UHGV virus genome: UHGV-0059920
DNA length: 20,854 nucleotides
Origin: a virus
Reading direction: 5' to 3' (one strand)
In this document: piece by piece, positions 3,865-14,153 of the stretch
Layout of the letters: every line of letters begins with the position of its first letter
Numbering within the stretch: the first letter of the stretch is position 1
Notes under the pieces: model-generated
Databases searched by the model: none
Seen by the model: only the letters and a program-made list of their open reading frames with translations
Told to the model about the DNA's origin: nothing
Made by a program: the position numbers and the translations under genes

Positions 3865-4288
3865 GTTTCACCGTCCACATTTCTTCAGGTTCATCAGGTT
3901 CCGCTACCGCTTCAACGTTCGACACACTGCCGTCAGTGCTGACCAGCACACGCTCCGTCAGTTGCAGGTTAAGGCTGATATCACAGACATCGTTGCGCAG
4001 AATATCCACCTCAAAGGTGAATAGCTTTTCCCGTAACGCCGGGTTATTGATGGCATCGGGCTGGTTATCCCGCAGCCACAGCAAAACCGGGGCCATCAGC
4101 AGATTCTGGTCGCCGCTGAAATCCTCAATCACCACGTTCAGGGTGTAGCGGTACTCCCATGACATGGAGCTGGCCCCCGTGGCAACCAGCGAACCGTTAT
4201 CCACAAACAGATGCAGTTTGTCCGGGTTATTGCGGACATAAGGCACCGCTTTATTGAGGGCATGGCGCAGGGATTGTGGTTTGTTCAC
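3857..4288 (-). CDS. R: Tail completion protein R
   Basis: Start refined to GTG at 4288, giving (M)NKPQSLRHALNKAV..., which parallels the P2 gpR N-terminus as recalled; AGGAG 7 nt upstream. The ORF-track start at 4309 is a TTG. Confidence 0.78.
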   Translation of the reverse strand: MNKPQSLRHALNKAVPYVRNNPDKLHLFVDNGSLVATGASSMSWEYRYTLNVVIEDFSGDQNLLMAPVLLWLRDNQPDAINNPALREKLFTFEVDILRNDVCDISLNLQLTERVLVSTDGSVSNVEAVAEPDEPEEMWTVKRG

Positions 4289-4541
4289 TGTTTCGCTCCT
4301 GACACGCAATAATCATGTCCACTTTGTCTGCACAGACCGCCCAGGCGGCCTCCGTTTCATCCAGCAATGCGTTCAGATCACCGTTAGTGCGCGGCGCTGT
4401 CTGATCCAGCCGACACGGCGTCACTCGCGGACAACCACTGACGGTAAGCTGCACCTCCGGTGAGTGCCGGACGTTCCCGCAGCCGGATAATGTCAGCAGG
4501 CAAAGGAGTATCAGCCCAGCGGCGTAAATCCTCGTTCTCAC
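4251..4541 (-). CDS. lysC: LysC, Rz1-like outer-membrane lipoprotein (o-spanin), embedded out of frame in lysB and running into R
   Basis: Signal peptide followed by lipobox LTLSG-C, proline-rich. Nested in the 3' end of lysB in another frame. Start is a GTG at 4541, so uncertain. Confidence 0.6.
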   Translation of the reverse strand: MRTRIYAAGLILLCLLTLSGCGNVRHSPEVQLTVSGCPRVTPCRLDQTAPRTNGDLNALLDETEAAWAVCADKVDMIIACQERNSEQTTIPAPCPQ

Positions 4542-4812
4542 GTTTCAGTTCCTCGATCCGGCGTTGTCGTTGTCTCAGCTGTGCGCTGGTCTGTTCTGCT
4601 TCGGCATAGAGCCGCGCCTGCTCCCGGTTATTGGTTTCAGTCAGAATGGACAGGCTGATAAGCTGGCTGTTGCTCTTTGCCAGTGCCTGGCTTTTGCTCT
4701 GCAGCTCGTTTGCCTGCGTGCTGATGGTCTGGCTGGCATCAGCCAGCCGCCACGTCTGCCAGCCCAGCGCCGCCAGTAATAACGCCAGCACAACCAGCAG
4801 CAACCGGTTCAT
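4384..4812 (-). CDS. lysB: LysB, Rz-like inner-membrane spanin
   Basis: N-terminal transmembrane segment (LLLVVLALLLAALGW) then a charged coiled-coil-like region; ATG overlaps the lysA stop. Confidence 0.72.
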   Translation of the reverse strand: MNRLLLVVLALLLAALGWQTWRLADASQTISTQANELQSKSQALAKSNSQLISLSILTETNNREQARLYAEAEQTSAQLRQRQRRIEELKRENEDLRRWADTPLPADIIRLRERPALTGGAAYRQWLSASDAVSAGSDSAAH

Positions 4813-5186
4813 GCTGCTACCTGTTGCGCCATCTGATTACGGGTGATCCAGAAGGCAATAACGGTCAGCAGATAAAAGACCAGGGTAATAGCCCACCCCG
4901 TCCATGCGAGACTTACAACAATCAGCAATCGCATCACCCAACAGATAAATACATTTTCTTTTCGGGTAATTGTCTTCAGCAAAGATGCCCTTAACTCCTG
5001 CCAGAGCGGGCCATTCTGAATTAACGCAGCCAGTGCTACCGGAATTACCGCCCATGTCAGCAAACAGGCTACCCAAACGCCGGACGCTGCCAGTACCGGA
5101 AAGATCCCCTGCGGATACACCATTGCTGCGATTAACAGCGCCATCCATAACATCAGAAACAGTCCGCTGATTAATTTCTTTTTCAT
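4809..5186 (-). CDS. lysA: LysA-like multi-pass membrane protein (putative lysis regulator)
   Basis: Start refined to ATG at 5186 (MKKKLISGLFLML...), 1 nt after the endolysin stop; about four hydrophobic segments; P2 lysA position. Confidence 0.65.
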   Translation of the reverse strand: MKKKLISGLFLMLWMALLIAAMVYPQGIFPVLAASGVWVACLLTWAVIPVALAALIQNGPLWQELRASLLKTITRKENVFICWVMRLLIVVSLAWTGWAITLVFYLLTVIAFWITRNQMAQQVAA

Positions 5187-5187
5187 T

Positions 5188-5700
5188 TCAGTTTGCTCCC
5201 TGTAAACACCAGGCCATCTCCCGCGCACGGCGGTTATCCAGCCCCTGATTAAACACACCTTTTACATAAACCCAGCGCGGCAACTGTCGGCACGCATCCG
5301 CCCAGCGCCGCTGATTGAGCAATTTCACCAGCGTGGAACTACAGGCATTGCCCGTCCCCACGTTGAAGGCAAACGACACCGTAGCGTCATACACCTTCTG
5401 TGGTGGCTGTTGCTTCACACACCTTTCCAGTGCCCGCTCCACACGCAGCACGTTGGAGATCAGCCCTTCTGCTGCCTGTCGTTCCGTGATTGTTTTGCCG
5501 GGAATGACGCCCGACGTATTACCAATGCCGTCGGTCCAGACACCCGCGCTGCACTGATACGGCTGCAGACGACAACCTTCGTAATCGGCAATCAGTTTCA
5601 GCCCTTCCACGGAGGTGTGAAGCTGCTGAAAACCCGGCAGCGTGGCAGCAATAGCCAGCACGGCCCCGACAAGGCAGCGTTTAACGATTGATGGATTCAT
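5188..5700 (-). CDS. K: Endolysin, GH24 lysozyme with N-terminal signal-anchor-release (SAR) domain
   Basis: Hydrophobic Gly/Ala-rich N-terminus (RCLVGAVLAIAATLPGF) followed by a T4/P22-lysozyme-like catalytic region (DYEGCRLQPYQCSAGVWTDGIGNT). Confidence 0.85.
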   Translation of the reverse strand: MNPSIVKRCLVGAVLAIAATLPGFQQLHTSVEGLKLIADYEGCRLQPYQCSAGVWTDGIGNTSGVIPGKTITERQAAEGLISNVLRVERALERCVKQQPPQKVYDATVSFAFNVGTGNACSSTLVKLLNQRRWADACRQLPRWVYVKGVFNQGLDNRRAREMAWCLQGAN

Positions 5701-5896
5701 AGTCCTCCCGCGAGATCTGCCCGTCGCGCAGGAGCTGGTAGGCTTTGTGTTTGTAGTACCAGTTGATAGCCAGCATCAGCACACCAATCATCAGGCCGCC
5801 CAGCGTTGAGGCATCCTTGATGGACAAATCGCCCAGCCAGGCCAGCACAACGGCGATGCAGTACGTGATAAAGGCGCTGATTCGCTCAAGCGTCAT
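5681..5896 (-). CDS. Y: Holin, class II with two transmembrane segments (possible pinholin)
   Basis: 71 aa, two hydrophobic helices and a charged C-terminus, directly upstream of the endolysin. Confidence 0.75.
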   Translation of the reverse strand: MTLERISAFITYCIAVVLAWLGDLSIKDASTLGGLMIGVLMLAINWYYKHKAYQLLRDGQISREDYESINR

Positions 5897-5899
5897 AAT

Positions 5900-6103
5900 T
5901 CAGTCCCATAGCTGGACGGTCTGCACGGTGGTGGTGGCCGGAATGTCCGGCAGCTCCACCTGCAGCCCGTGAGGTAAAAAGGGGCCATATTCGGCAAGCC
6001 CCGGATTTGCCTTCAGTACCTGCTCCGTGACACCCTGCGTGCGCCCGTAATGACGCCAGCAAAGCGCGTCCACCGTGTCATACTGATGCGCACGCACTTT
6101 CAT
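5900..6103 (-). CDS. X: Tail protein X
   Basis: 67 aa, same size and position as P2 gpX between L and the holin. Confidence 0.8.
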   Translation of the reverse strand: MKVRAHQYDTVDALCWRHYGRTQGVTEQVLKANPGLAEYGPFLPHGLQVELPDIPATTTVQTVQLWD

Positions 6104-6567
6104 CAGATAAGCTCCACTGTACAGTGCGGCGCATCCTGCACCCGGCTGATGGCCCAGCGGGCGTCACGCCACAAATCACCGCTGGATTCCGCCAGTTCCT
6201 CGCCTCGCTTCACACCGGATGCCGTGGCGTCATAGTCCTGGTATCGTTCGTTGAGCATGGCGCGTGCCCAGCAGTAAACCGCGTTGAAATAGTGCTGAAT
6301 GCGCTCACTTTTCCCGTCCAGCTGTTCTGCCGGAACCTCTGCCAGCGAGGCATACCCCAGCATCTGCTGGCGTCTGCGAAACTCATACAGCTCTGCGTTG
6401 ACCTCCGAAATTGCCGACAGCGCAACCTGCTTTAAACGCGGCTGCGTCACCGTGCCGTCAGTGCGCATGACACTGCGAAACTCCGACAGGTCCACATCAG
6501 GCCAGAACGGCGTATTTCTGATGATTTCCGCCTGTTCCGGTGCCTGTTCTGGCGCAACAAACTTCAT
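6103..6567 (-). CDS. L: Head completion/stabilisation protein L
   Basis: Start refined to ATG at 6567 (MKFVAPEQ...) with AGGAGA upstream. The ORF-track start at 6630 is a GTG with no RBS. Confidence 0.82.
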   Translation of the reverse strand: MKFVAPEQAPEQAEIIRNTPFWPDVDLSEFRSVMRTDGTVTQPRLKQVALSAISEVNAELYEFRRRQQMLGYASLAEVPAEQLDGKSERIQHYFNAVYCWARAMLNERYQDYDATASGVKRGEELAESSGDLWRDARWAISRVQDAPHCTVELI

Positions 6568-11134: not shown

Positions 11135-12159
11135 TGGGAAAGAGTAAGAAGAACCGCGCTGCGTCGACGAAACAGATCCAGCATAAAGGCCAGACTTCAG
11201 CCGAAGCATTCAGCTTCGGTGATCCCGTTCCTGTTCTGGACCGCCGCGAACTGCTGGACTATGTGGAATGCGTACAGATGGATCGTTGGTATGAGCCGCC
11301 TGTGAGTTTCGACGGACTGGCGCGAACTTTCCGCGCCGCCGTGCATCACAGCTCACCGATTGCAGTGAAGTGCAACATTCTGACCAGCACCTACATCCCT
11401 CACCCGCTGCTCAGCCAGCAGGCTTTTTCGCGTTTTGTACAGGACTATCTGGTTTTTGGTAACGCCTACCTGGAGAAACGCACGAACCGTTTCGGTGAAG
11501 TTATCGCCCTTGAGCCTGCTCTGGCAAAATACACCCGACGCGGGTTAGACCTGGATACCTACTGGTTTGTGCAATACGGTATGACAACCCAGCCGTATCA
11601 GTTCACGAAAGGCAGCATTTTTCATCTGATGGAACCGGACATCAACCAGGAGATCTACGGCCTGCCAGGTTATCTTTCTGCCATTCCGTCAGCCCTGCTC
11701 AACGAGTCCGCCACGCTGTTCCGCCGTAAGTATTACATTAACGGCAGTCATGCAGGCTTCATCATGTACATGACCGATGCCGCGCAGAACCAGGAGGACG
11801 TGAACAACCTTCGCAATGCGATGAAAAGTGCCAAAGGACCAGGTAACTTCCGCAATCTGTTCATGTACTCGCCTAACGGCAAAAAGGACGGGCTTCAGAT
11901 CATCCCGTTGTCAGAAGTCGCGGCGAAGGATGAGTTTCTGAATATCAAAAATGTCAGCCGCGATGACATGATGGCTGCGCACCGTGTACCGCCACAAATG
12001 ATGGGAATCATGCCGAGTAATGTTGGGGGATTTGGTGATGTTGAAAAAGCCAGCCGCGTCTTTGTCCGCAACGAACTGATGACGTTACAGAAGCGACTGC
12101 AGGAGCTTAACGACTGGCTGGGCGAAGAAATAATTCGCTTCGAACCTTATATGTTTTAG
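11134..12159 (+). CDS. Q: Portal (capsid vertex) protein Q
   Basis: Start refined to ATG at 11134 with GGAG upstream (the ORF-track start at 11131 is a TTG); about 341 aa downstream of P. Confidence 0.9.
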   Translation: MGKSKKNRAASTKQIQHKGQTSAEAFSFGDPVPVLDRRELLDYVECVQMDRWYEPPVSFDGLARTFRAAVHHSSPIAVKCNILTSTYIPHPLLSQQAFSRFVQDYLVFGNAYLEKRTNRFGEVIALEPALAKYTRRGLDLDTYWFVQYGMTTQPYQFTKGSIFHLMEPDINQEIYGLPGYLSAIPSALLNESATLFRRKYYINGSHAGFIMYMTDAAQNQEDVNNLRNAMKSAKGPGNFRNLFMYSPNGKKDGLQIIPLSEVAAKDEFLNIKNVSRDDMMAAHRVPPQMMGIMPSNVGGFGDVEKASRVFVRNELMTLQKRLQELNDWLGEEIIRFEPYMF

Positions 12160-12176: not shown

Positions 12177-12202
12177 AAAGCGCCTGCTACTGCAGGCGCT
12201 TT
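12177..12202. terminator. Bidirectional rho-independent terminator between convergent Q and the 97-aa ORF
   Basis: AAAGCGCCTGC-tact-GCAGGCGCTTT: an 8-bp GC-rich stem flanked by an A-tract and a T-tract, 18 nt after the Q stop. Confidence 0.6.
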
Positions 12203-12204
12203 GT

Positions 12205-12498
12205 TTACTCTTTAACAAGTGTGCCCCACACCGAGTCTTCAACCTCTTCAACAACAATATTGATGTTGCAAATAACATGGTCTTCACTTACTCGAGTATA
12301 TCTGAATAACCTTGATTTCACTTTCCCACCAAACGACTCACGGTCTTCATTGTTGGTAATGTCGACATAATCCCCAACATTCGGAAGCATCAGGAGTGGA
12401 TTGTCTTCCGAAGAACATCTTACAATCTCTCCATCATCAAGAGGTCGCGTATCCCCTTTACGTAAGTATTGAAAGTCATAGTTGTATATGGTTTTCAT
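12205..12498 (-). CDS. Hypothetical 97-aa acidic protein; AT-rich cargo gene between portal gene and cos
   Basis: Single ATG start with AAGGA 8 nt upstream, terminator immediately downstream, visibly AT-rich codon usage unlike the flanking phage genes. No motif recognised. Confidence 0.55.
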   Translation of the reverse strand: MKTIYNYDFQYLRKGDTRPLDDGEIVRCSSEDNPLLMLPNVGDYVDITNNEDRESFGGKVKSRLFRYTRVSEDHVICNINIVVEEVEDSVWGTLVKE

Positions 12499-12677
12499 TG
12501 TCTATCCTTTTGAAAGTAACATCGCTGACGTATGTTGTTTCACAGTTCCATTTCCACATTAAGTCAATGAAATCAACATCATTTAATGTGTGCCAATATA
12601 TTGCAACACGATCCCGAAAACTTCAAATCAATCTCTCCAATACGCGGGATTATTACTTTTTCGCCCCGTTACGCGCG

Positions 12678-12696
12678 CTCGTATCCCCGCCACGCC
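12678..12696. other. Putative cos site (cohesive-end region)
   Basis: Minus strand reads GGCGTGGCGGGGATACGAG. I recall the P2/P4 cohesive end as GGCGAGGCGGGGAAAGCAC and a near-identical one for 186. It lies on the far side of Q from P, where cos sits in P2. Confidence 0.5.
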
Positions 12697-12740
12697 TGCC
12701 CGCTTTGTGTAGTGGTTTTCATGCACCTGCATGACACAAG

Positions 12741-12770
12741 CAAAAGCCCGCCAGCTCTGGCGGGCATCAG
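12741..12770 (-). terminator. Rho-independent terminator, minus-strand orientation
   Basis: GCCCGCCAG-ctc-TGGCGGGC stem followed on the minus strand by TTTTGCTTG; sits after the HNH gene and before cos. Confidence 0.5.
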
Positions 12771-12878
12771 CAAAAACGATCCTCAAACGATCATGCGATT
12801 TCATGCGGCATAGACATGCGTTGGCAAAAATGTACGAAATACTCAGCTTATAGGAAATGGTCTTTTTCCAACCTCCAG

Positions 12879-13598
12879 TTAGCCAAAGCAGAAACCAATA
12901 TTGCAATTTGAAACTCCACAGTTGTGAAATTGATGTGGACCTACTCTTAGCTTGTGTTCGTCTCCTACAATCCGAGTCCCCTTAACCAACATATCTAATC
13001 TTTCCACAATCAATCTTTCAGGCGCATCAACTTTAATAATTAAACGAGGACCTTTCCTTTTTTCTATAATAGTTATTCTAGGACCGACAACCTGAACATC
13101 CCAATGCCTTGCACTACAAACCCACTCATTCTTAATTAATTCAAGATTAACAATACCTTGACTATCGTAAAATTTACCCGAAATAAGAAAAGCATTATTT
13201 TCTTTTTCAATGGTTAACAATGGCTCATTTTGAAACATTATTGGTACAGTACAGGATTCAAACGTCGCACCACCAAATATTATTGTTGGATGCCTATCAG
13301 AAAAGTCCAATATATCGGCCACATTCCCTTTTTGTAAGGCTGCAGGAGATTCCATTGCTTTAATTATTTTCTCTTTAGAGTAAAGACGTTTCGTTACTTT
13401 CGCATGGCACGTAGGACAAAGTAGTGCTATTGCATTTGGAGAGTGCTCCTTTGCATCAGCGTATGTGGGAATTACATGCTCATACTCAACAATGGGAGAA
13501 GCACAAACAACGCAACCGAAGCCACAGCGCTGCCTTACCTCCAGTTTTACAGGTTCAGGAATTGTTCTAGATAACCCATGCTTGTTAATAGTTGTCAT
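12879..13598 (-). CDS. HNH (His-Me finger) nuclease-domain protein with an unrecognised C-terminal domain of about 170 aa; candidate defence or exclusion cargo
   Basis: N-terminal motif RCGFGCVVC...EYEHVIP...SPNAIALLCPTCHAK has the spacing of a zinc-bound HNH core (CxxC, EH, N, CxxCH). AAGGTAAGG RBS upstream; visibly AT-rich. It sits where P2 carries old/tin. Confidence 0.7.
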   Translation of the reverse strand: MTTINKHGLSRTIPEPVKLEVRQRCGFGCVVCASPIVEYEHVIPTYADAKEHSPNAIALLCPTCHAKVTKRLYSKEKIIKAMESPAALQKGNVADILDFSDRHPTIIFGGATFESCTVPIMFQNEPLLTIEKENNAFLISGKFYDSQGIVNLELIKNEWVCSARHWDVQVVGPRITIIEKRKGPRLIIKVDAPERLIVERLDMLVKGTRIVGDEHKLRVGPHQFHNCGVSNCNIGFCFG

Positions 13599-13634
13599 AA
13601 CCTTACCTTAAAACTTCGAGAAACCTTTTATATA

Positions 13635-13649
13635 TTGATACTATATCAA
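13635..13649. promoter_or_regulatory. Palindrome TTGATA-cta-TATCAA upstream of the HNH gene (candidate operator/promoter element)
   Basis: Perfect 6-bp inverted repeat with a 3-bp spacer inside the 122-bp gap between the DinI-like gene and the HNH gene. Confidence 0.3.
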
Positions 13650-13720
13650 CTAACGCCTCGCACAGCTCGTTGTTCAACCTTGCTGACGCCAGAAGCAAGT
13701 TCAGACGCCAGCAACGTTTC

Positions 13721-13954
13721 TTAATGCAGCCAGCTGTCGTCTTCCCACACCTTCTGCATAATTTTCATCACTTGCTTCCTTTCTTCGTCCAGTTGCAGTC
13801 CGGTCAGTTCCACACCGTTAGAGCTACCTTTGCGGATGCGAATTACCGTTTTTGGATACAGGGGGCGCAGATTGCGGTAAAGCTCGGATTCAAGGGCGTC
13901 CAGGGTAGACTGGCTAATCTTCTGCTCTTTATCGATCATTATTTCAATGCGCAT
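13721..13954 (-). CDS. DinI-like protein (candidate Tum-like SOS antirepressor domain)
   Basis: Start refined to ATG at 13954 with GAGGTG upstream. MRIEIMIDK...LDALESEL...KIMQKVWEDDSW aligns by eye with E. coli DinI as recalled (MRIEVTIAK...IDALAGEL...WESADDW). Confidence 0.8.
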   Translation of the reverse strand: MRIEIMIDKEQKISQSTLDALESELYRNLRPLYPKTVIRIRKGSSNGVELTGLQLDEERKQVMKIMQKVWEDDSWLH

Positions 13955-13964
13955 AAAAGTCACC

Positions 13965-14153
13965 TCAGCTGATGACATCCATTGAGCGGTTGTATTCGTG
14001 GGTTCTGATTTTTGCCATGAGTTCATCTGTCAGTTCAGAAACCCACTGCAAAGCCAGCCCCTTCTCTTCATCACTACACTCACTAGCCGCTACAAGTTTA
14101 AGAAAAAAATCAATGCGCTGGAGCTTCAAAGACTCCAAAAAATAGTCCTGCAT
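13965..14153 (-). CDS. Small hypothetical protein (62 aa), first gene after the LexA box
   Basis: ATG at 14153 preceded by AGGAGGAAAG. Ends 10 nt before the DinI-like start, in a different frame. Confidence 0.5.
   Translation of the reverse strand: MQDYFLESLKLQRIDFFLKLVAASECSDEEKGLALQWVSELTDELMAKIRTHEYNRSMDVIS

Follow-up and report, generated by a model that had tools for sequence, protein, structure and literature searches.

A P2-like prophage lysis cassette with a probable P1 Lyz-type signal-arrest-release endolysin and an HP1-family holin

The virus genome UHGV-0059920 was analysed over a stretch of 20,854 nucleotides, here called the window. Positions 5188–5896 of the window are filled by two overlapping minus-strand open reading frames, a small holin gene and an endolysin (lysozyme) gene, and the stretch shared by the two is 20 nucleotides long. 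By analogy with phage P1 Lyz, this locus very probably belongs to the lysis cassette of a P2-like prophage whose lysozyme is of the P1 Lyz signal-arrest-release (SAR) type, i.e. exported, tethered to the membrane, caged by a disulfide bond and released by the holin. An earlier note, made from the sequence letters, had proposed an endolysin secreted in an inactive, disulfide-caged form. This is the best-supported reading, the support coming from homology to P1 Lyz and not from experiment. The open reading frames, the coordinates and the two peptides quoted in that note, KRCLVGAVLAIAATLPGF (endolysin residues 7–24) and EGCRLQPYQCSAGVWTDGIGNT (residues 41–62), are present as it had claimed.

Endolysin family and catalytic motif

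The endolysin sequence matches profile PF00959 with an E-value of 4.4e-40 and 137.3 bits against a cut-off of 22.3, and the match covers 124 of the 125 profile positions. PGAP calls the gene product 'lysozyme', at equivalent coordinates in its locus. The top solved relative found by HMMER is P1 Lyz, represented by 1XJT (active form, E-value = 2e-26) and 1XJU (secreted inactive form, E-value = 5e-25). The phage 21 endolysin R21 (3HDE) and the DLP12 homologue (4ZPU) rank behind P1 Lyz among the PDB matches. An AlphaFold2 model, made from a shallow alignment of 29 sequences with at least 79% identity, has a mean predicted local distance difference test score (pLDDT) of 70.5 and was used for fold search only. 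The structure that matches it best is 1XJT, which bears the title 'active form of P1 phage endolysin Lyz', at a TM score of 0.71.

The active site aligns with P1 Lyz (1XJT and 1XJU, HMMER) with no gaps, the window sequence being YEGCRLQPYQCSAGVWTDGIGNT and that of P1 AEGCRRDPYMCPAGVWTDGIGNT. E41, C43, C50 and T56 map onto E42, C44, C51 and T57 of P1. In the raw sequence these codons are at 5578–5580 (E41), 5572–5574 (C43), 5551–5553 (C50) and 5533–5535 (T56). The spacing E41-C50-T56 is Glu-8X-Cys-5X-Thr and is exactly that of the T4-family catalytic triad, Glu-8X-Asp/Cys-5X-Thr (PMC3556154). C50 takes the place of the catalytic Asp, and T56, in the triplet VWT, is the catalytic Thr, not T62, in GIGNT. 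The triad Cys of P1 Lyz is disulfide-bound until activation (PMC3556154); C43 is the presumed caging partner of C50 in the window sequence. The earlier note had placed one Cys two residues after the catalytic Glu and another at the Asp position, which is borne out by the alignment of C43 and C50 with P1 C44 and C51. That note had made its proposal depend on these cysteines lying close to the catalytic Glu, and in the P1 Lyz alignment the pattern holds. When the endolysin is aligned with HP1 Lys, the P1-type SJ46 Lys and five distant relatives, E41, C43, C50, T56, C137 and C165 are invariant.

Conservation and co-variation of cysteines

The endolysin has seven cysteines, at positions 9, 43, 50, 94, 120, 137 and 165, and each is kept in 28 or 29 of 29 homologues with 79–98% identity. 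C43 is found in 28 of these, P0090 showing a Gly instead. All seven are also kept in the 27 readable genomic loci that were retrieved with the holin as query and that come from about 15 enterobacterial genera. The N-terminal SAR-like helix with a Cys that the earlier note had pointed out is likewise a constant feature, with Cys9 conserved in 29/29 homologues and 27/27 loci.

More diverse relatives were taken as the representatives of a 50% clustering from a library of 1.84 billion proteins. Among the 22 that combine an N-terminal hydrophobic helix with the E-x-C...C...T pattern, 20 have a Cys in the region of the helix, compared with one of five helix-bearing relatives without Cys at the Asp position (four with Asp, one with Pro). 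The difference (Fisher p = 0.004) is indicative only, as the sequences are phylogenetically related and the list of matches is biased in favour of the query. Of the helix-bearing relatives, 16 of 21 have the C137/C165 pair, against only 2 of 83 without the helix (Fisher p = 1e-12), a skew expected if the helix-bearing enzymes fold in the oxidising periplasm. Judged from the sequences, C137/C165 and C94/C120 probably form two structural periplasmic disulfides beyond the regulatory trio. C137 and C165 fall within window positions 5188–5292, C94 and C120 within 5290–5421; the latter two are found together in the closest subfamily only.

The N-terminal segment

Residues K7 and R8 precede the putative SAR segment, C9 to F24, in which Gly, Ala and Thr make up 7 of the 16 residues. 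The AlphaFold2 model also shows an N-terminal helix. The general SAR signature has two or three basic residues ahead of a weakly hydrophobic transmembrane domain (TMD) (PMC9239132). The window sequence shows a short basic N-terminus and a weakly hydrophobic TMD, and no convincing cleavage site is seen in it. The endolysin ATG at 5700 has a GGAGG upstream and lies 20 nucleotides inside the holin gene.

Type of regulation and proposed mechanism

Three sequence features of P1-type control are found in the endolysin: C50 corresponds to P1 C51, C43 corresponds to P1 C44, and Cys9 is in the SAR domain. Cys9 lies where the helix begins on the cytoplasmic side, outside the column of P1 C13. The residue-level disulfide-isomerisation mechanism of P1 Lyz was reportedly worked out by Xu et al. 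in 2004 and 2005. The PDB titles, which name active and inactive forms of P1 Lyz, and PMC3556154 are consistent with this mechanism.

By analogy, an uncleaved type II signal anchor formed by K7, R8 and a short Ala/Gly-rich helix starting from Cys9 would direct Sec export of the catalytic domain, and the SAR helix would hold the endolysin at the inner membrane as a tether. So anchored, the enzyme would be inactive, with C50 locked in a disulfide with C43. When the 71 amino acid holin triggers, the membrane potential would collapse and the SAR helix would exit the bilayer. The Cys9 thiol could then attack the C43–C50 bond to give a C9–C43 bond and a free C50, and the enzyme would refold into an active muramidase. 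The LysB/LysC spanin would then disrupt the outer membrane, and the LysA-like protein encoded downstream would probably adjust the timing.

Two other types of SAR regulation were considered and rejected. The earlier note had described the P1 cysteines as flanking the catalytic Glu; this needs correction, as in P1 both lie C-terminal to it, at +2 and +9, the latter replacing Asp. Cysteines that do flank the Glu (C-E-x-x-C) are said to be those of Lyz103 of Erwinia phage ERA103, attributed to Kuty et al., 2010. The window endolysin is not of the Lyz103 type, since the residue before E41 is Y40 and both cysteines are C-terminal to the Glu. It is not of the sterically regulated R21 type either, because C50 is found in place of the triad Asp and both C9 and C43 are present.

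Several points weigh against the assignment to the P1 Lyz type. Gene order, family membership, the alignment of the motif and the conservation and co-variation of the cysteines are shown by the sequences; export, tethering, the disulfide partners and release by the holin rest on analogy. The Gly/Ala/Ser/Thr content of the SAR segment is 44%, which is below the 47% of P1, the 53% of HP1 and the 59% of R21. Cys9 opens the hydrophobic segment whereas P1 Cys13 sits inside its own, and since the HMMER alignment begins at residue 13, the SAR cysteines are analogous by position and not aligned. In the AlphaFold2 model the pLDDT is <50 over residues 41–67, which include the catalytic motif; the shallow alignment is the more likely cause. 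The part of P1 Lyz to which residues 41–67 correspond reportedly differs between its inactive and active forms (attributed to Xu et al., 2005). The E-x-C...C pattern is found in 27 relatives that have no N-terminal helix and are presumably cytoplasmic; thus the Cys pair in the catalytic region is by itself no proof of SAR-linked regulation, and it is the triple pattern of helix Cys plus E-x-C...C that carries the argument. Helix-less relatives with Cys at both Glu+2 and the Asp position include P0164, P0168, P0182 and P0204. As far as the sequences tell, the Cys-for-Asp triad is widespread in apparently cytoplasmic endolysins too, which fits the idea that P1-like SAR endolysins may have given rise to soluble forms (PMC3556154). 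Finally, one record, ON470620.1, starts the endolysin at a GTG codon (V14), giving a protein of 157 amino acids from which the basic residues and Cys9 are deleted, the two annotations differing over window positions 5659–5700.

If that GTG were the true start, the product would be a soluble cytoplasmic lysozyme without the SAR Cys. The annotation of ON470620.1 and the presence of 157 amino acid members in NCBI protein clusters speak for such a start, which we nevertheless consider extremely unlikely. The ATG is the one preceded by GGAGG and the one chosen by PGAP and in the record of Klebsiella phage KP12, and similarity to the SAR region of P1 Lyz continues upstream of V14. Residues 1–13 are conserved in all 27 loci, even where overall identity is only 73–78%, the N-terminus M-x-P-x-I-V-K-R-C being kept throughout, and the 20 nucleotide overlap of the ATG with the holin gene is constant. 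This N-terminal conservation together with the constant overlap means that the long form is the real gene. The N-terminal segment could also be a cleavable Sec signal peptide, in which case the mature lysozyme would be freely secreted, without Cys9 and under some other kind of control. An AXA motif, A16-I17-A18, is found inside the hydrophobic segment, SignalP-type tools scored the N-terminus of HP1 Lys as a signal peptide (PMC7312051), and T4 RI, long considered a SAR protein, is in fact cleaved according to the title of PMC8385771. Cutting after A18, on the other hand, would shorten the h-region to only about 7 residues. Cys9 never varies in the 27 loci and 29 homologues, whereas identity elsewhere in the protein goes down to 73%, and in 20 of 22 distant relatives a helix Cys goes along with the cysteines of the catalytic site; neither the invariance nor the co-occurrence is to be expected of a peptide destined for removal. 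The crystal structure 1XJT, the active form of P1 Lyz and thus of the closest solved relative, still contains the SAR domain. Cleavage therefore appears very improbable, and the tethered P1 Lyz-type endolysin is preferred.

The holin

The holin sequence of 71 amino acids, MTLERISAFITYCIAVVLAWLGDLSIKDASTLGGLMIGVLMLAINWYYKHKAYQLLRDGQISREDYESINR, has two predicted TMDs, a charged C-terminus and one start codon. It scores 36.7 bits against PF16080 (Phage_holin_2_3, HP1 holin family), above the cut-off of 28.8, and 23.2 bits against PF04971 (P21 S family), which is under the cut-off of 26. Both NCBI and PGAP list it as 'HP1 family phage holin', and it shows all the traits of the HP1 family: a pair of TMDs, charges at the C-terminus, one start codon and a gene that overlaps a SAR lysozyme gene downstream. 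The identical protein carries other names in databases: 'secretory protein', 'membrane protein', 'hypothetical protein' and, at JGI, 'cytosine/uracil/thiamine/allantoin permease'. Pairwise similarity to HP1 Hol is not significant (BLASTP E-value = 0.19; hhalign probability 8%), and BLASTP gives no alignment with S21, the holin of phage 21. There is a marginal similarity to the C-terminal two helices of P2 gpY (28% over 54 amino acids, E-value = 1e-4). This similarity suggests a possible distant kinship between two-TMD and three-TMD holins in P2-like phages. The N-terminus, MTLERIS, has a single Met and offers no dual start for an antiholin.

TMD1 is the most conserved part of the holin, above TMD2, across genera. 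Its Kyte-Doolittle mean is 2.12, compared with 0.49 for TMD1 of S21 and 1.44 for TMD1 of HP1 Hol. The summed values on the Hessa scale are −0.56 for the window holin, 6.2 for S21 and 3.9 for HP1 Hol. Gly, Ala, Ser and Thr make up 35% of TMD1 versus 65% in S21, the S21 sequence used being 100% identical to that of phage 21. TMD1 is thus unlike the SAR-like TMD1 of S21, by composition only. A face of small residues recurs at every fourth position of TMD1 (S7, T11, A15, A19), followed by G22, and Cys13 is nearly invariant. The small-residue face hints at a specific helix–helix contact rather than at a membrane-exiting SAR helix. In TMD2, G34 and G38 are invariant, HP1 Hol included.

Pinholin or canonical holin

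The holin may be a true pinholin, as the earlier note had suggested, one that forms depolarising holes of nanometre scale and does not release soluble endolysin, and this reading falls just short of what we would call probable. The family assignment points to it, since PF16080 is above threshold and HP1 Hol, which is paired with a P1-like SAR endolysin, leaked no beta-galactosidase and killed without lysis (PMC7312051). SAR endolysin genes usually adjoin pinholin genes, and LydD, encoded beside lyz in P1, is a pinholin (PMC9025707). The length of 71 amino acids, the two TMDs and the conserved GxxxG in TMD2 agree with this, as does the gene order in all 27 loci, where the holin is followed by a SAR endolysin and in none by a soluble one. 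However, the loci share one co-inherited module with holins at least 50% identical. As close relatives of one module they give the pairing little weight, and they cannot separate a pinholin from a canonical holin. The lack of significant similarity to HP1 Hol or S21, the P21 S Pfam score under cut-off and the missing dual-start antiholin also count against a pinholin, as does the strong hydrophobicity of TMD1 (2.12, 35% Gly/Ala/Ser/Thr), given that TMD1 of S21 must exit the membrane. The heptamer model of the same holin by the authors of the KP12 study has a low pLDDT of about 51 (PMC9902359).

The protein might also be a class II holin of the canonical, large-hole kind, which happens to go with a SAR endolysin in the way that P1 LydA is paired with Lyz, and this we hold to be a serious possibility but not a probable one. 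TMD1 has a hydrophobicity like that of ordinary TMDs, and there is the weak similarity to P2 gpY, the holin that serves endolysin K, which is taken to be soluble (lambda R-like). SAR endolysins are known to function with canonical holins, as P1 Lyz does with LydA/LydC and R21 with lambda S (PMC9025707). A preprint on phage N4 deals, by its title, with a SAR endolysin–holin system. A further possible parallel is the small prophage holin NucE of Serratia, encoded beside the lysozyme NucD, which reportedly acts as a holin in E. coli (attributed to Berkmen et al., 1997). Against this reading, HP1 Hol, the founder of the family, acts like a pinholin, and the gpY similarity is marginal, gpY being placed in a different family, PF04550. 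P1 Lyz works with a pinholin as well as with a canonical holin (PMC9025707). Either holin type would trigger the SAR endolysin: depolarisation alone suffices.

A more speculative idea, which we regard as improbable, is that an HP1-family holin with a stable, highly conserved and strongly hydrophobic TMD1, which could not act in the manner of S21, may represent a mechanistically distinct small- or large-hole class II holin strictly tied to P1-type SAR endolysins, and that the protein at the LysA position may act on membrane energisation or on SAR release (releasin-like or anti-release) and not on a specific holin. The four-TMD protein at the LysA position is kept beside the presumably soluble endolysin of P2 (K) and beside the SAR endolysin of the window alike.

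Neighbouring lysis genes

Three further open reading frames follow the endolysin gene (Table 1). The LysA-like open reading frame has its ATG 2 nucleotides past the endolysin stop codon, and hydropathy shows four hydrophobic segments. Its position is that of P2 lysA, which the P2 record describes as 'nonessential; affects timing of lysis', and pairwise similarity to P2 LysA is weak (E-value = 0.003). The LysA-like protein is thus a candidate lysis-timing regulator. PHROG 162, the family of the LysA-like protein, is labelled 'endolysin', and this label spreads to RefSeq phage records, e.g. P2 lysA. The LysC open reading frame overlaps lysB, PGAP placing its start at 4499, and a lipobox, LTLSGC, is found in the translation.

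Dozens of database proteins of 276–296 amino acids consist of the endolysin fused to the LysA-like protein via 1 nucleotide frameshifts near the 3′ end of the endolysin gene. The LysA frame stays open for 24 codons upstream of its ATG (window positions 5188–5258). Programmed frameshifting was considered as the source of the 296 amino acid fusions. The shift points vary between entries, e.g. between P0013, found on 30 contigs, and P0018, so that independent indels or sequencing errors are likelier.

Table 1. Features of the lysis cassette with their positions in the window
Feature	Position	Strand	Basis and remarks
Class II holin, 71 amino acids, HP1 holin family	5681..5896	minus	PF16080; PHROG 20 'holin', E=1.9e-26
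Predicted holin TMD1, residues 6–22, ISAFITYCIAVVLAWLG	5831..5881	minus	Hydropathy; strongly hydrophobic, highly conserved
Predicted holin TMD2, residues 29–48	5753..5812	minus	Hydropathy; G34-x3-G38 (GxxxG)
Putative SAR endolysin, 170 amino acids, GH24/T4-type lysozyme, P1 Lyz type	5188..5700	minus	PF00959; P1 Lyz best PDB match
Putative SAR segment, residues 9–24, CLVGAVLAIAATLPGF	5629..5676	minus	Sequence reading and hydropathy; Cys9 (5674–5676) is the first residue
Catalytic/regulatory motif E41-G-C43-x6-C50-x5-T56	5533..5580	minus	Gap-free alignment to P1 Lyz
LysA-like membrane protein, 125 amino acids, four TMDs	4809..5186	minus	PHROG 162, E=2.7e-43; NCBIfam DNZ54_00345, 122.6 bits
LysB, Rz-like inner-membrane spanin subunit, 142 amino acids	4384..4812	minus	TIGR03495 phage_LysB, 174 bits; PHROG 89
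LysC, Rz1-like outer-membrane lipoprotein spanin subunit	4251..4541 (longest open reading frame)	minus	PF23793, E=1.8e-15; NF038368 P2_Rz1, 124 bits

Phage identity and locus context

The gene content identifies the window, at the level of sequence, as a P2-like (Peduoviridae) prophage that carries its lysis cassette in the late operon. The minus-strand order is O, N, M, L, X, holin, endolysin, LysA-like, LysB, LysC, R, S, which agrees with the annotation of related records, and the layout of the cassette is that of the P2 late operon, X-Y-K-lysA-lysB-lysC. Bases 4200–6200 show 97–98% nucleotide identity with Escherichia phages 500465-1 and vB_EcoM-813R9 and with Klebsiella phages 4LV2017 and KP12. 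Of 5,426 complete E. coli genomes, 1,403 contain prophages that match the full window, in 903 cases across 80% of its length or more, and the exact holin and endolysin sequences are each found on at least 1,000 contigs. The same prophage is very common in E. coli and Klebsiella, and the lysis module is an ordinary one.

Away from the cassette, positions 12200–13650 consist of AT-rich variable cargo between the portal gene Q, which ends at 12159, and a DinI-like gene (13721–14026, minus strand). A cargo open reading frame of 239 amino acids (12879–13598, minus strand) displays an HNH nuclease domain (PF01844, E-value = 2.4e-5); for another, of 97 amino acids (12205–12498, minus strand), no match was found. 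PADLOC gave only a marginal mREase_IV match in the 12.2–13.6 kb cargo and no convincing defence system there. In the prophage of E. coli EM06-18-14, the equivalent position is occupied by a STAS-like protein and a hypothetical protein. The cargo position resembles the P2 old/tin variable hotspot, known for its anti-phage defence genes.

Prior description and significance

The P1 Lyz-like nature of the endolysin has already been described, and the module is ordinary. The KP12 GenBank record shows peg.319 at the endolysin position, in a locus about 97% identical to the window and with the same pattern of coordinates. According to the 2023 KP12 paper, KP12.peg.319 is structurally like P1 Lyz (TM-align 0.83) and has a conserved type II signal anchor/SAR domain (PMC9902359). 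A pinholin partner was sought there, and the candidates included peg.320, the 71 amino acid holin, but peg.280 was favoured (PMC9902359). The passages of that paper retrieved by a term search contain no discussion of the cysteine pattern. The HP1 pair of pinholin and SAR endolysin was published in 2020 (PMC7312051).

What is added here is modest: a residue-level map of the seven cysteines, their co-variation across the family and the argument that the holin is unlike S21. The P1 Lyz mechanism itself was reportedly published in 2004–2005. A textbook mechanism in a prophage of roughly one sixth of complete E. coli genomes has little weight as a discovery. The value is in annotation, where labels such as 'lysozyme', 'secretory protein', 'hypothetical' and 'permease' are in use and internal GTG starts strip the regulatory Cys. 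Noting that P1-type SAR endolysins occur in Peduoviridae with an HP1-type holin would better the annotation of lysis cassettes. For expression as an enzybiotic, the N-terminal helix and Cys9 would, if the analogy with P1 Lyz holds, belong to the activation switch.

Comparison with known SAR systems

P1 Lyz and the window endolysin are both GH24 enzymes with an N-terminal SAR helix that bears a Cys, and both show the identical E-G-C-x6-C-x5-T with Cys in place of the catalytic Asp. Each has seven cysteines. C43, C50, C137 and C165 are in the same columns as P1 C44, C51 and the two C-terminal cysteines, whereas C94 is offset by 4 residues from a P1 Cys, and C120 by 4 residues plus an 11-residue insertion that P1 Lyz carries after the FNxG motif and the window endolysin does not. 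Overall identity is about 36%. The gene arrangements differ: P1 lyz is in an operon of its own with a small holin gene downstream (lydD, PMC9025707), an order also seen in the record of the P1-like SJ46, while the window holin is upstream of the endolysin in a P2 late operon.

Haemophilus phage HP1 is P2-like as well, and its small single-start holin of the HP1 family overlaps the start of a P1-like SAR lysozyme. HP1 Lys, a SAR lysozyme, shares 49% identity with P1 Lyz; HP1 Hol is required for lysis and for progeny release, and HP1 lysis is blocked by a SecA inhibitor (PMC7312051). Both HP1 Lys and the window endolysin display the SAR Cys together with EGC...C...T, and HP1 also has a LysB-like gene downstream. 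The endolysins share 34% identity and the holins about 21–25%, TMD1 of HP1 Hol being less hydrophobic (1.44 versus 2.12). Unlike the window, HP1 has no LysA-like gene at the equivalent position.

Phage 21 and the window both have a two-TMD class II holin of 71 codons followed by a SAR T4-type lysozyme, and R21 and the DLP12 homologue are significant sequence and fold matches to the window endolysin. R21 keeps the catalytic Asp, is not known to have a regulatory Cys and is regulated sterically. S21 differs by its dual start and by a TMD1 that is SAR-like and only weakly hydrophobic; neither trait is found in the window holin.

P2 and the window share the position of the cassette after gene X, lysB and lysC of one spanin family and a four-TMD protein at the LysA position. 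P2 Y is a 93 amino acid holin of PF04550, a Pfam family other than that of the window holin, and P2 K is unrelated to GH24, to which the window endolysin belongs. Thus in the window phage another holin–endolysin pair takes the place of P2 Y and K, while lysB and lysC are kept.

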